Of a stretch of DNA of 64,000 nt, positions 3,472 to 54,683 are shown piece after piece. The translations under genes and the position numbers were made by a program. The notes under the pieces were generated by a model. It did not search any database. It was not told the origin of the DNA and saw nothing but the letters and a program-made list of their open reading frames with translations. Position 1 is the first letter of the stretch, and every line of letters begins with the position of its first letter. The DNA comes from Malassezia furfur. Its lineage: Eukaryota. Where the stretch lies: NCBI GenBank assembly GCA_052055015.1, contig JBQJIT010000013.1; one strand, written 5' to 3'.

Positions 3472-3977
3472 ATGTACGCCTGGCTGAAGGGTGAAACGGC
3501 GCGGGCGCTGATCCCGCAATTTTTGATGTTGTCGGTGGTCAGCTCCGTCGCTCTGAATACAACTCTCATGATCCGTGAGCGAGAGCTTGCAGCACGGTCG
3601 TTCCGGCTGCAGCGCGAGGTACTGCAGAACCTACGCGAGCAGCTTCGGATGAACCGCTCGGCAACCTTGGCGCGCTCCCCCGAGATTTGCCGGCAACTGG
3701 TCAAGGTGGGCCTGAAGCCGACGGACTACGGTCTGGACAGCGAAGACTCTGCGCATGCCGAAGCGGATGTGGTGCCATTCCATCGCGACCTTTCTTGGTT
3801 CGACGTATTCTTCTCGCGCAGAAAGGTGGATCAACAATACAACCCGAAGTCGACGCTGTCGTCCGAGACGGATTGGGAAAAAGGTATGTTTCTATGTGCA
3901 CGGCTAATGGAGCAGAGCTCGCCAACCTGATTGAGGAGCTGGAGCAAGAGTGCGAGCTGGACGACGTCAGCACGTAG
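3472..3977 (+). CDS. Small hypothetical membrane protein, 2 exons (32-nt intron 3884-3915)
   Basis: N-terminal hydrophobic helix. GTATGT...GCTAAT...CAG intron joins ORF 3472 to ELANLIEELEQ...ST*. Confidence 0.65.
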
Positions 3978-29307: not shown

Positions 29308-30840
29308 CTATGTCCGTCGACGTTTTCGCGTTTCCGCAGAGATGGCCGAGGCCGGGCGCCCGCCCCCGCACGCCTCGCAAAACCATTCGCCCTCTGGCAC
29401 ACTCGCAAGCGGCGGCTTGAGGCACCCAAGATGGTACGGATTCTCGCACCGATCGCACGCTAGTAGCGTCGCATCGTCATCATCCTGCGCAGAGTGGCAC
29501 ACAAGGCACGCGTCAGACGAATGCGTCTCGCGCGGAAGTCGCGGTAGCTCCGTGTATGCTTTGGTCGGTTCCACGAGCCAGTACGACGTCGTCGCACCAC
29601 TTTGCACGTCGACGATATGCAGATCGCGCATCGCACTCATGACGTGTGGGTCGGCCAGCACCCGCCGTGTCCCAAGCTCGTCATGAGAAGCATTTTGGCC
29701 CCAGGCGTACGGCACAATCGGAGCACCCTCGGCAGGATCCGAAGCAAGGCAGTAGTACGCATCCTCGCCGAGCGCCGCCGTGCGGATGCGCAAGCCTTCG
29801 AGCACAGGGAGCGGCTTGAAGATGTAGTACCCTTGGCCGAGGCCGCCGTCACCGGTGATGCGCGTCCGGCCGGCAATCCAGTAGTTCGCGCTGGCGTCCA
29901 GGCACACGGTCGCCTCGTACCCTGCCATCACCCGTTCGATGCGCTCCTCCCTGCTTTTCCTGTGTGAGCGTCGCACGTACCGCACAAATTGCTGCACACG
30001 CACAGGTGCCATCTGGTCGCGCTGTGTGCCGCACCCTAGACAGCCAAACCGGTTCGCGCCCCAGGTATATACGTATCCGTCACGGTCCACACTGCATGAG
30101 CATGGCACTTACGCTGCCGCATGACGCATTCCACAAGATATTTGTACAATATGCTGCAGGGCGAGGGGGACTGAGTCAGGCCACCGCGTACCAAATGTGC
30201 TGTGCGTCGCATACACGACATCAGACGCCGACGTCGACACGGCCCCAAACTCATTTGTGCCCAGCTGACCGCACTCGGTGGATCCAGCTGCATGGACTGA
30301 ATTTGTACTGAACACGTACCTTTGCTCGACGCAAGGACCAGGCTAAAGGTGCGCCCACACGACACTTGCGTGGCCTTGGCCATACCCTCAACGCGCTGAA
30401 ACGGCAAGACGGCTGACATCCCACCAAGACCGCATTGCCCCTGAGCATTCGAGCCAGCCGCATAGACGTTACCAGCCGACGTCACCAGGAGCGAGTGCGC
30501 AGCGCCCGTCGCCGCATCCACCACCCGCTCGTCCTGTCCAAGCGGAGGAGAAAAATCGCGTGGCGCTAGCCTCACGGGCTCAGCGAGTACTTTTCCCGCC
30601 GTATCCACCCCACATTGACCGTGGCCATTGTCTCCGTACGCGTACACTTCGCCGTCGGTCGACACGAAGAGTACATGCCGGCTGGAAACCGACGCGCCGA
30701 TCTTGCGTACACGCACATTGGAGATTCCACGCAAGATTGTCGGGGTCGTGACGCTTTCCCATGTATTGTCCGGCGCGGGAACGCTGCCACACAGAAGCAC
30801 TGGGTCAGTCTCGACGCGTACCTCGGCCCCACAACGCCAT
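29308..30840 (-). CDS. RCC1-repeat (RCC2/TD-60-like) protein with C-terminal PHD finger; introns 30800-30821, 30297-30319, 30092-30112, 29960-29980
   Basis: Splicing gives MALWGRVLLCG..., restores RCC1 repeats (GQCG, GQLG, VYTWG..GCLG), and ends in a C4HC3 PHD (CLVC...CDRC..PYHLGC...GEWFCEAC). Confidence 0.88.
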
Positions 30841-51373: not shown

Positions 51374-52456
51374 ATGACGAACAATGCACGGAGCAGGACT
51401 CCGGAGCCCAGTACGCCTGGGAGAGACACCGACGCACCGTCGGTGAGCGAACGAGCCGCAACATCTAACGACAACGACGTGAAGAAGGTGGAACCCGTAG
51501 CTCCTGAGGCTGCGGAGCCCGTGGCCGTGCACACCGCGGTCGATGAGCACAAGACTCCACAAGAAAATGACAGCCGCGCACGGTTGCCTGCACCTACGCG
51601 AGAAGCGCAGAGCATGCACACCGAGTCGCCTGCTTCTCCTACACCGCCACCAAGCGAACTACCAGTGAACAATACACCTTCGCGCGACGACGCGGCGGAT
51701 CGCGCCAGCCCGCCAAAGGCATCCCCCCATAACCTTGCGGACGGAACGGAGAGCCCAGCGCGTCATCCGGGCACCGAATCGCACCCCGCACAGGCCGGCC
51801 AAAAACGCCCTGCTCGGCGTCCGCAGCTGCAACTCGAAGACCAGCGGCGAGGTAAGAGAATGCTCGGTCTTCTCAACAACACCTTATCCCAGTCGCGTGA
51901 GCCGCGCAAGCGTGTGCGCACCGAGGCCGAGGCCGAGGCCCCGGCTCCGCCGCGGCCAGCTGCACCCGCGGTTGACCTCGCCGCCGAGCGGGCCACGCAC
52001 GATGCCGAGCGGGCCTCGATCCGAAAAGACCTCGAGCGAGCACATACCCTCGCGGAGGACCTCGCGGCGTACGAGGCGGCTTACCGTACGGCACGTTCGC
52101 AAAAGCGACGTCTTTCTAGCTACCTTGTGACACACATCAGCCCGACCAGCGCTGCACGCGCGCCGGCCAACCCGGCCGAGGCCGCTGCCACGGCGTTGGG
52201 CCGTGAGCCGCGTGTACCCATTGCTTTGCGCGGTGCACGTTCCTACGACGTGTACTATCTGCCGCGGAAGCTGCTTCCGGAACAGGAAGATGTGCTGGAT
52301 GCGCAAGAAGAGGCCATTGATGACATTCTTGACCGTGCGGACGACGAATACGACCGTGTGCGCGGTGAGATGGAGCGCGAGCTGGATGCTTGTAAGGCAC
52401 GCTTGCGGCAGCACAATGTGGACCCACTCAGTGTTCCACAACGACGGACGTGGTAA
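51374..52456 (+). CDS. Pinin/SDK/MemA-domain protein
   Basis: EDQRRGKRMLGLLNNTLSQ and YYLPRKL motifs; low-complexity N-terminus. Confidence 0.75.
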   Translation: MTNNARSRTPEPSTPGRDTDAPSVSERAATSNDNDVKKVEPVAPEAAEPVAVHTAVDEHKTPQENDSRARLPAPTREAQSMHTESPASPTPPPSELPVNNTPSRDDAADRASPPKASPHNLADGTESPARHPGTESHPAQAGQKRPARRPQLQLEDQRRGKRMLGLLNNTLSQSREPRKRVRTEAEAEAPAPPRPAAPAVDLAAERATHDAERASIRKDLERAHTLAEDLAAYEAAYRTARSQKRRLSSYLVTHISPTSAARAPANPAEAAATALGREPRVPIALRGARSYDVYYLPRKLLPEQEDVLDAQEEAIDDILDRADDEYDRVRGEMERELDACKARLRQHNVDPLSVPQRRTW

Positions 52457-52457
52457 G

Positions 52458-53474
52458 CTACTGGATCTTGCGCGCGCGGTACTCGTCGACGAACCGGTGC
52501 TTAGGGTCGTCATCGCGCACGCGCTTGATGTACGGAAGGAGCGAGTTGACAAACACAAAGTTGTCGGGGTGCTCACAGAGCGGCAGTACAATAGTCTGGC
52601 ACAAAACCATGAGTAGATACGCGCCATAGCACGTCAGAATGTGCCACCAGCCGTGTCCCTCGAGCAACAGCGCCCAGGGGTACCCCACAATCTCGCGGCT
52701 CACGCGCAGCGTGCCACAAAAAATGTTGTCAATGTTCCAGATCAAAAAGCCCGTCAAGAAGCTCACAATGCCGACCGCTTGCTGATGGCGCGCCGTGGCC
52801 TGCCAGACGCGCGAAGCAGGCGTCAGCGAGAGCGGCGAGTTCTTAGACCAGAGTGTCTTCAGACCGTGGATGCTGGTGAAAGCAAAGATGCACGCGTATG
52901 CGACCTGGTGAAATACTGGGTTTCCGTGCAGCACGTAGGTCACCGTGACGAACACAGCGAGACCCGCAACGAGGGTGCTGAGGATCGCAGGATGTTTCTT
53001 CTTGCCGTACGACACAGTCTCGTCGAGCAGGCACCAGCACACGTAGGAGCTAGCCCAGATCATCGGCAGTTCATCCATCATTTGTGCCTCATGCTTAAGC
53101 GTCATGTGGAAGAGGAAGGAGCCGAATCCAACCGTGCCCAGACCTGGTGTGAGCAGAGAGACGTACCGATGTACATGCCATGGAATCGGGCGGGAAGGCG
53201 CTGCTGGTGAATACGGTACATTCCGTATATCGCAGAGGCAAAAAAGAGCAGGTTGGTCAACTGCGTTAGCCACGAGATGCGCACCGTATTGACCGGCTCA
53301 GCAATGTACTTGGTCCATGCGCTCCGGTTAGATAGACACCTACTATTTTTTCTGGGTGAGTTGCGTTGGCGTACCTCGCACCAGAGCAACGTGCTCGTTC
53401 TGTGGTCAGTATTGCACATACACAGGGCCCCAGTAGCCAGTGGGGATCGGATCTCTCTCCTTGAGCCAGCTCAT
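52458..53474 (-). CDS. Alkaline ceramidase (Ydc1/Ypc1/ACER3 family); introns 53400-53421, 53352-53374, 53322-53343, 53261-53284, 53144-53166
   Basis: Splicing gives GYWGPVTSTLLWCEKKYAWTKYIAEPVNTLTNL...VGFGSFLFHMTL...DELPM...EGHGWWH. Confidence 0.93.
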
Positions 53475-53698: not shown

Positions 53699-54638
53699 CT
53701 ATGCATACAGGGCGAGGACGCGGTCCTCGATGCGGTCGCCGACCCATGCGACGCTGTCGTTTTTCTGCGACGCGCCCATCAGCTCCAAGCTGTCCTTTTC
53801 CGCGGCGTGGAGCTTGACGTGGTCGACCTGGCCAGGGACCTGCTCCTGCATCATCAGGGCAGCGCCGCCAGCGCCCATAGCCATGTCGCGCGACGAGTCG
53901 GCGGCTGGGTCAGTGGGTGTTCTACACACCATTGTTGTTGCCCAACAGCAGACGGTAGATGGCGTCCAAGCCGTAGAGGTTCAAAAAGTACCAGCTCAGC
54001 GACGACACCCACTGCACATCGAGGTCGCGCGCCGCGACGTCGCGCTGCAGCATGACCTTAAACCCCTGCGTGAGTGGGAAGGGGAGTTTGACTGCGTCAG
54101 CGTTGCACACCTACTCAGCACAAAGCCCGAGAAGAAGAAGTTGATCCAGCCCATGATGGCCGTCTGAGGCACCATCATCACGAGACTCTTTTTCGCCTGC
54201 TCGAGCATCATATCCATGGTGTTGGGGTCCGAGAGCGGGTTCTTCACCTCGGGCATCTCGTCCGGCTTGCGCTTGCGCTCGCGTTCAATCGCCGCCTTAG
54301 AGTCCGGCGCGAGGTACGAGCCGTCGCTGAGCGCGCGCGTGAGGAATGTTCGGCGCAGGGCCACGGCAGACGGCGGAATCATGAGGTAGTTAGCGCGCAA
54401 TGCGCTCGCGCGCGAGAGAATGTTCCGCTGGCGCAGCGCGGCGAGCTTGGCCGGCTTCGGCGGGCTCTCGAGGAACTGCATCAGGTTGTTACGGAGCACG
54501 CCGACGAGCACCATGACGAGCGTGATGGGAATCAATACCCAGTTGCGCAGAGCGCTGCATGAGTAAGGTGCGCGTACCTGTCGAGCAAGAGCGGCTGACT
54601 GTGCACGGTCAGTGGGCGCGGCCAACGTACCTCCCCAT
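53699..54638 (-). CDS. EMC3: ER membrane complex subunit 3; introns 54599-54630, 54555-54577, 54092-54114, 53905-53929
   Basis: Splicing gives [15 protein letters not shown]...[29 protein letters not shown]...[11 protein letters not shown]. Confidence 0.94.
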
Positions 54639-54683
54639 GGTGGTGTGGGAAAGCCACGTGGCCTCTTCACGACCGCGACGCGT
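54639..54683. promoter_or_regulatory. 45-bp bidirectional promoter EMC3/SMC3 with palindrome GCCACGTGGC
   Basis: Divergent ATGs; CACGTG at 54655-54660. Confidence 0.6.

Follow-up and report, generated by a model that had tools for sequence, protein, structure and literature searches.

The minus strand of a 64,000-nucleotide (nt) stretch of Malassezia furfur DNA (contig JBQJIT010000013.1, GenBank assembly GCA_052055015.1; this whole stretch is referred to as the window) carries a gene that homology identifies as an alkaline ceramidase (PF05875; Ypc1/Ydc1/ACER3 family) of an M. furfur-like yeast, the hydrolysis itself being a predicted activity. Between its ATG at 53474 and position 53144, exactly five introns of the form GT..CTNAC..AG are found, with lengths of 22, 23, 22, 24 and 23 nt, and they are packed within 278 nt (53144-53421). 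A preliminary description of this DNA had claimed five introns of 22-24 nt, an exon of 8 nt at 53344-53351 and an acceptor that reads GAG, and every coordinate and sequence detail of that claim was borne out, on the minus strand.

We consider it highly probable (roughly 88%) that the productive transcript is a six-exon messenger RNA (mRNA), from which five ordinary U2-type introns, belonging to the ultra-short class typical of the genus, would be removed. Joined by their coordinates (Table 1), the six exons give 903 nt, i.e., 300 codons and a stop codon, with no internal stop. The ATG of exon 1 is the first in-frame ATG of its open reading frame (ORF) and yields the MSWL start common to the orthologues. 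The three small exons (exon 2, the micro-exon and exon 4) follow one another directly in the chain, and intron 2, the 8-nt exon and intron 3 together span only 53 nt. With 8 nt, the micro-exon falls within the size limit used for micro-exons elsewhere (internal exons of ≤15 nt, as in PMC12230235, whose omission breaks the frame); skipping it causes a frameshift and a stop at codon 33. The length of intron 4 is a multiple of three and it holds no in-frame stop.

Table 1 Features of the ceramidase gene and of the adjacent EMC3/TMCO1-family gene, in window coordinates
Feature	Position	Strand	Length (nt)	Description
Ceramidase exon 1, coding part	53422..53474	-	53	Start codon 53474-53472; ends in phase 2 inside codon 18
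Ceramidase intron 1	53400..53421	-	22	GTATGT .. CTGAC .. CAG; phase 2
Ceramidase exon 2	53375..53399	-	25	Codons 19-26; WCE motif at its end
Ceramidase intron 2	53352..53374	-	23	GTACGC .. CTCAC .. CAG; phase 0, after codon 26
Ceramidase micro-exon	53344..53351	-	8	AAAAAATA; codons 27 and 28 and two bases of codon 29 (K, K, Y)
Ceramidase intron 3	53322..53343	-	22	GTAGGT .. CTAAC .. GAG; phase 2; GAG acceptor at 53322-53324
Ceramidase exon 4	53285..53321	-	37	AWTKYIAEPVNT; codons 29 (third base) to 41
Ceramidase intron 4	53261..53284	-	24	GTGCGC .. CTAAC .. CAG; phase 0, after codon 41
Ceramidase exon 5	53167..53260	-	94	Codons 42-73 (first base of codon 73)
Ceramidase intron 5	53144..53166	-	23	GTACGT .. 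CTCAC .. CAG; phase 1, in codon 73
Ceramidase exon 6	52458..53143	-	686	Includes stop codon 52460-52458; bulk of the ceramidase domain
EMC3/TMCO1-family gene	53702-54640	-		PF01956, via the orthologue at L003
EMC3 intron	54577-54555	-	23	Defined by homology
EMC3 intron	54114-54092	-	23	Defined by homology
EMC3 intron	53929-53905	-	25	Defined by homology
EMC3 intron candidate	54630-54599	-	32	Near the gene start

Identity and orthologue support

Exon 6 alone matches the Pfam profile PF05875 (Ceramidase) with 174.8 bits (cut-off 32.5) over profile positions 61-257 of 259, and the small exons supply the first 60 profile positions that exon 6 lacks. The unspliced ORF at 53105-53470 (minus strand) covers profile positions 15-61 with 25.4 bits, which by itself is under the cut-off. 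Residues 3-208 of exon 6 also match the structure of human ACER3 (6g7o_A; E 8.8e-25). In the protein comparison, two M. furfur records come closest (99% and 91% identity), ahead of those of other Malassezia and of Ustilaginomycotina.

A metagenome scan brought in four loci of other Malassezia species (L001-L004) that are 52-53% identical over the last exon. At L003 the N-terminus is encoded in one uninterrupted frame with no intron. L001 and L002 have a single intron of 67 nt and L004 a single intron of 29 nt, in each case at the position and in the phase of intron 4; introns 1, 2, 3 and 5 have no counterpart in these four loci. From the GYWG motif onwards the five-intron product aligns with all of them without a gap, and L001-L003 have one extra residue near codon 5. 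Removal of the five introns restores a conserved, colinear reading frame, and the comparison of intron positions with Malassezia orthologues, which the preliminary description had proposed as a check, strongly supports the exon chain through this gapless colinearity with intron-poor loci.

The same chain was returned by a purpose-written protein-to-DNA spliced aligner (BLOSUM62, affine gaps, GT-AG introns of 15-200 nt in all phases). Given the N-termini of 10 orthologues, it placed exactly these five introns in 10/10 cases at intron penalties of 8 and 15, and intron 1 was needed for all 10 at each of the three penalties used (8, 15 and 25). At penalty 8 it also placed an extra upstream intron of 114 nt for the query P0034, which we regard as spurious and which looks like an alignment artefact, as does an 18-nt 'intron' called in L013.

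Proteins derived from the competing parses were scored with a comparison hidden Markov model (HMM) built from 16 orthologues from outside M. furfur. The five-intron model reached 437.4 bits, compared with 423.1 bits when intron 4 is retained, 410.5 bits when introns 2 and 3 are retained and 396.2 bits when all three are. The exon chain of the public protein P0002, applied to the window sequence, gave 401.0 bits, and the public proteins P0002 and P0001 themselves 365.1 and 313.2 bits, respectively. The spacing of the conserved N-terminal residues singles out the same product. A WCE...AE..N...[ST]N pattern occurs in 93 of the 123 proteins compared, with spacers of exactly 9 and 2 residues in 92 of these; the sole exception to the WCE-x9-AE..N-x2-[ST]N spacing is P0121, an unspliced ORF, and among the parses of this gene the spacing is reached only by the five-intron product. 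The preliminary description had held that only this parse gives a family-like N-terminus. That view is upheld by the spacing (92/92) and by the HMM scores, but it goes too far if taken to mean that no other parse is open, since in-frame read-through of introns 2 and 3 and/or of intron 4 stays open as well; its own arithmetic, that retaining introns 2 and 3 (45 nt) or intron 4 (24 nt) keeps the frame open, is correct.

Human ACER3 has an N-terminal GYWG..WCE..Y..AE..NT..N pattern with the same spacing as the Malassezia protein, and the orthologue at the intron-free locus L003 matches ACER3 (6g7o) at E 2.1e-36 with its N-terminus included. The histidines of the FH and HxxxH motifs (H163 and H167 invariant and H12 nearly so in the family alignment) align with the FH and H..WWH columns of ACER3, where we take them to be the zinc ligands. 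Through the gapless alignment with L003, the residues of the micro-exon (codons 27-29) fall on E23-N24-Y25 of ACER3, and in Malassezia they are K/Q/R, K and Y. At positions 19, 23 and 24 ACER3 has D, E and N, whereas the Malassezia proteins have L, K/Q/R and K. As D19 and N24 are presumably calcium ligands in ACER3, the calcium site of the human enzyme may not be conserved in Malassezia.

Intron positions in relatives

Many proteins in the collection are plain ORFs called on genomic contigs, and read-through ORFs among them consequently report on introns. P0121 (105 residues, 87% identical) is such a read-through ORF from a second M. furfur lineage. It aligns without gaps through part of intron 1, from exon 2 to exon 5 including introns 2-4, and through part of intron 5. 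As there are no gaps, introns 2, 3 and 4 must have the same lengths in both lineages, and the second lineage thus appears to keep all five introns, at identical lengths for these three, which adds to the support for the exon chain. Exon 2 (8 codons) and exon 4 (12 codons) are identical in P0121. As judged from the protein, the differences would affect spacer bases, the N of the CTNAC element in introns 3 and 5, and the fourth base of the intron 5 donor.

Two further proteins extend the comparison. P0122 (81 residues) comes from a more distant relative; it begins within an intron at position 3 and continues through one of 27 nt at position 4 and one of 23 nt at position 5. P0005 also starts inside an intron at position 3 and is without introns 4 and 5. 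The presence of an intron at position 3 is inferred from these read-through ORFs (P0121, P0122 and P0005). The public M. vespertilionis model (P0007) is consistent with introns at positions 1, 2 and 4.

Intron positions were examined in 39 of 80 loci; many loci are contigs of 1.0-1.6 kb that are possibly transcripts and hence uninformative. Seven of the 39, all from distant fungi (L010, L022, L028, L029, L036, L038 and L039), have an intron of 52-73 nt in phase 0 that follows the residue matching codon 27, exactly one codon 3' of intron 2. The one-codon offset could mean that an ancient intron position has shifted by 3 nt, or that the intron was inserted independently.

The number of introns therefore differs among close relatives, from five, through three or more, to one and none. 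Intron 4 appears to be common to several Malassezia lineages and intron 3 to at least two nearer relatives. The sharing of the intron 4 position with L001, L002 and L004, the agreement of P0007 with positions 1, 2 and 4, and the seven loci with an intron near intron 2 argue against gain in M. furfur, and loss in the intron-poor species would be at least as likely.

Splice signals and rival transcripts

In this DNA of 60-70% GC, wrong frames stay open, and intron finding by ORF bridging, by GC content at third codon positions or by codon usage of the flanks was too noisy to be of use. We relied instead on homology-defined introns, on a strict motif and on a handful of clear cases. The strict motif for tiny introns consisted of GT[AG]NG[CT], then CTNA[CT], then the first AG, with a total length of 20-26 nt. 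In 53144-53474 (minus strand) it matches exactly the five intron sites. Among 5000 dinucleotide shuffles of this region, 4756 had no match, 233 had one, 11 had two and none had three or more. Over the whole window and both strands there were 22 matches, whereas 40 shuffles averaged 11.5 and never exceeded 20. The 331-nt ceramidase stretch holds five of the 22 matches, and the next densest cluster has three.

All five introns share a GTRNGY donor, a CTNAC element whose branch-like A lies 5-6 nt from the 3' end, and an acceptor that is the first AG. The three homology-defined introns of the EMC3 gene (Table 1) behave in the same way. In these eight introns the branch-like A of CTNAC or CTNAT is found 9-13 nt past the donor hexamer (in the five ceramidase introns the CTNAC site lies 9-12 nt past it), and in 8/8 the first AG, located 5-6 nt beyond this A, is the acceptor. 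Elsewhere in the window, a second group of strict-motif matches at 29960-30191 and 30800-30821 (minus strand; 21, 21, 21 and 22 nt, all with CAG) probably marks another multi-intron 5' end.

A pyrimidine precedes the acceptor AG in four of the ceramidase introns (CAG), but not in intron 3 (GAG). The following AG, which ends at 53309, lies 13 nt beyond this GAG, and its use would shift the frame. Since the first-AG rule applies and no other AG follows for 13 nt, intron 3 uses the GAG. The status of intron 3 as an intron is drawn from homology; the GAG would lower its expected splicing efficiency and does not remove that status. The 22 strict candidates in the window (both strands) end in CAG in 19 cases and in GAG in three, with no TAG and no AAG, and therefore the acceptor consensus of this genome looks like CAG rather than YAG. 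Shuffles lead to an expectation of 1.25 TAG and 1.98 AAG acceptors, and none of either was seen among the 22. The other two GAG candidates (28949 and 28758) resemble coding sequence. A candidate intron at 3884-3915 (plus strand) with the donor GTATGT and a branch-like CTAAT has two possible acceptors 3 nt apart, GAG at 3912 and CAG at 3915, both in frame; GAG may thus be used a second time here, or the two may form a tandem acceptor. In P0122 and P0005, Pro-Ser stands where M. furfur has Arg-Ser at the intron 3 acceptor, which is compatible with an ordinary NAG acceptor at intron 3 in those relatives.

Several results weigh against the five-intron reading. At an intron penalty of 25, the spliced aligner keeps only introns 1 and 5 for 10/10 queries and reads through introns 2 and 3 and intron 4 as in-frame insertions, so homology scoring alone does not exclude their retention. 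Codon differences between the two M. furfur lineages are not significantly more frequent in introns (8/39) than in exons (4/51; Fisher p = 0.12). The GAG acceptors occur at the shuffle rate (3 vs 2.98) and are not enriched as a class, whereas CAG is enriched 3.6-fold; the acceptor of intron 3 is thus atypical, and this intron may be spliced inefficiently. Lastly, the two deposited M. furfur annotations (P0001 and P0002) use other exon chains.

The first of these points would fit a main mRNA that keeps the 53-nt block of introns 2 and 3 plus the 8-nt exon, the 24 nt of intron 4, or both; translation would then add 15 and/or 8 residues near the N-terminus of the ceramidase. Both read-throughs keep the frame open, and they are open in the second lineage too, although P0121 could be found only because its frame is open. 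Against this, each retained product falls below the five-intron model in HMM score, and none of the 92 family members has extra residues at either place, where L001-L004 and human ACER3 align without gaps. The would-be inserts also carry a full set of intron signals (donor, branch-like site and acceptor), spaced as in the other introns. We consider a translated insertion in the main mRNA highly improbable.

The deposited annotations offer a different transcript, either P0002-like, which leaves out exon 2 and takes the micro-exon and intron 3 as coding sequence, or P0001-like, with a start inside exon 5. The P0002-like chain is open in the window sequence (299 codons). However, both models lose the conserved N-terminal motifs and score well below the five-intron product. 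P0002 reads an intron as coding, misreads the exon 2 region and is without 16 residues in the alignment, and P0001, truncated at its N-terminus, is without the first ~70 residues of all full-length orthologues. That either public model describes the real transcript is barely credible. Of the four named Malassezia protein records, three have an incorrect 5' end (P0001, P0002 and P0007), and only P0006 (300 residues) is colinear. P0007, from M. vespertilionis, is without exactly 2 + 15 residues; the 15 match the 8-nt and 37-nt exons together (45 nt) and the 2 match a shifted acceptor, as would be expected of a predictor that joined the intron 2 donor to the intron 4 acceptor. The five-intron structure explains all three faulty records, which indicates that annotation pipelines still miss micro-exons between sub-25-nt introns. 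As a result, the N-terminal part of a sphingolipid enzyme is misdescribed in databases, in a lipid-dependent skin commensal.

The frame stays open when intron 4 alone, introns 2 and 3, or introns 2, 3 and 4 are retained, and retention of intron 1, 2, 3 or 5 alone leads to a stop at codon 22, 49, 28 or 93, respectively. As the open retained products score lower and break the invariant family spacing, they are, if they occur, likelier to be errors than isoforms. The preliminary description had supposed that removal must be ordered, as two spliceosomes cannot occupy the span together, and that in-frame retention isoforms are possible; both would be hypotheses about the RNA. Ordered removal of the introns that flank the micro-exon would be a plausible application of a published idea. 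The steric argument behind it is not specific to the 8-nt exon, because the U1 and U2 sites are already 15-18 nt apart inside every one of these 22-24-nt introns (the distance from donor to branch site), and the splicing machinery of the genus would therefore already tolerate the 14 nt that separate the branch-like A of intron 2 (53357) from the donor of intron 3 (53343) across the micro-exon.

Recognition would most likely take place across each intron (intron definition), which is the expected mode for introns as short as these, and under intron definition the 8-nt exon would need no exon-spanning complex. Neighbouring introns, which are 8-37 nt apart, would probably be removed one after another. 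Such sequential removal would apply to the whole five-intron array, with its exons of 25, 8 and 37 nt, and would be no special device of the micro-exon.

A more elaborate possibility is that the five-intron mRNA is productive and that its intron array doubles as a switch, regulated or leaky, in which the weak GAG is slow or is used in a set order, frame-shifted RNAs are degraded and in-frame retention gives variants immune to decay. The rarity of GAG among the candidate acceptors would suit such a switch, as would the early stop on retention of intron 3 alone and the open frame on retention of introns 2 and 3 or of intron 4. An 81-nt hairpin is predicted at 53310-53390 (minus strand; -22.5 kcal/mol, z -1.88, with 4/200 shuffles folding as well) in which the 3' part of exon 2 forms a stem with the end of intron 3 and the first base of exon 4, and the micro-exon lies in the loop. 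Ordered removal around micro-exons has also been documented in animals (PMC10250204). However, the hairpin is marginal, the full 331-nt region shows no structure (z -0.87), and open frames for the 45-nt and 24-nt segments would arise by chance at a rate that we roughly estimate at 15-25% each. We therefore regard a switch as unlikely.

The strongest form of this idea is equally doubtful. It would hold that the 53-nt unit of intron 2, micro-exon and intron 3, within an array whose five introns are parted by exons of 25, 8, 37 and 94 nt, is no larger than the RNA footprint of one spliceosome, that its removal is obligatorily sequential with the GAG as the slow step, and that it thereby forms a natural kinetic gate. 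If this were true, failed or mis-ordered steps would give either degraded, frame-shifted RNAs or decay-immune variants of +15 or +8 residues, altered in the N-terminal part that aligns to the calcium-site region of ACER3, and the locus would be a ready substrate for asking what the minimum size of a spliceosomal intron-exon-intron unit is.

Neighbouring genes and known systems

The ceramidase gene is surrounded by an EMC3 gene (upstream, on the same strand), an SMC gene, a pinin/SDK/memA-like gene and a P4-ATPase gene, and this order is kept in three other Malassezia loci. All three introns placed in the EMC3 gene by homology are missing from its orthologue at L003, which is a single ORF. On the other side, at 52454-52460, the pinin/SDK/memA-like gene (plus strand) ends at 52456 and the ceramidase stop codon occupies 52460-52458 (minus strand). 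With convergent stop codons only 1 nt apart, the 3' untranslated regions of the two genes must overlap.

Very short introns have been stated for the genus Malassezia (PMC7426719). The curated annotation of M. sympodialis has a mean intron length of 30 bp over 5350 introns, 99% of them supported by RNA sequencing (PMC5389616, Table 2), and the introns of M. restricta have an average of 37.2 and a median of 30 (PMC9241646, Table 1), with a minimum intron length of 15-20 set by its annotators (PMC6473144). For M. furfur, RNA sequencing data have served in annotation (bioRxiv 10.1101/638429). A multi-intron gene with a non-canonical splice site has been described in M. sympodialis, namely SPO11 (PMC3560662). 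The five ceramidase introns belong to the same GT-AG class of a few tens of bases as these published introns, and at 22-24 nt they lie below those means and medians (PMC5389616, PMC9241646). A limited literature search returned no paper on the structure of this gene or on micro-exons between sub-25-nt introns in Malassezia.

In ciliates, introns that are multiples of three and free of stops are depleted, whereas intron 4 of the ceramidase gene is a stop-free 24-mer. The introns of Paramecium (~25 nt; PMC5014332) are of a comparable size class in a different lineage.

Tiny exons have been described in fungi as well. In a long-read annotation of another basidiomycete, Coprinopsis cinerea, internal exons of ≤15 nt occur in ~9% of gene models (1,165) and go down to 1-3 nt; leaving one out disrupts the frame in 835 cases, and such exons are known to lead to faulty annotations (PMC12230235). 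The ceramidase micro-exon differs from these in being flanked by introns of only 23 and 22 nt. For animal micro-exons, the idea has been put forward that a very short exon leaves no room for the U1 and U2 complexes to assemble together, so that recognition occurs across the intron and one flanking intron goes first, with downstream-first removal (PMC8378409, PMC10250204). Those exons are alternative, lie between long introns and depend on dedicated factors, whereas the ceramidase exon is presumably constitutive and its introns are minimal. In Caenorhabditis elegans, very short flanking introns are reported to relieve the special requirement of micro-exons (PMC8378409).

Set against these systems, the gene structure given here is, on the comparative evidence, correct and extreme but ordinary in kind, as both tiny introns and tiny exons are already known in fungi. 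The locus is a compact natural example of how closely splice signals can be packed, and it represents no new kind of element or mechanism.

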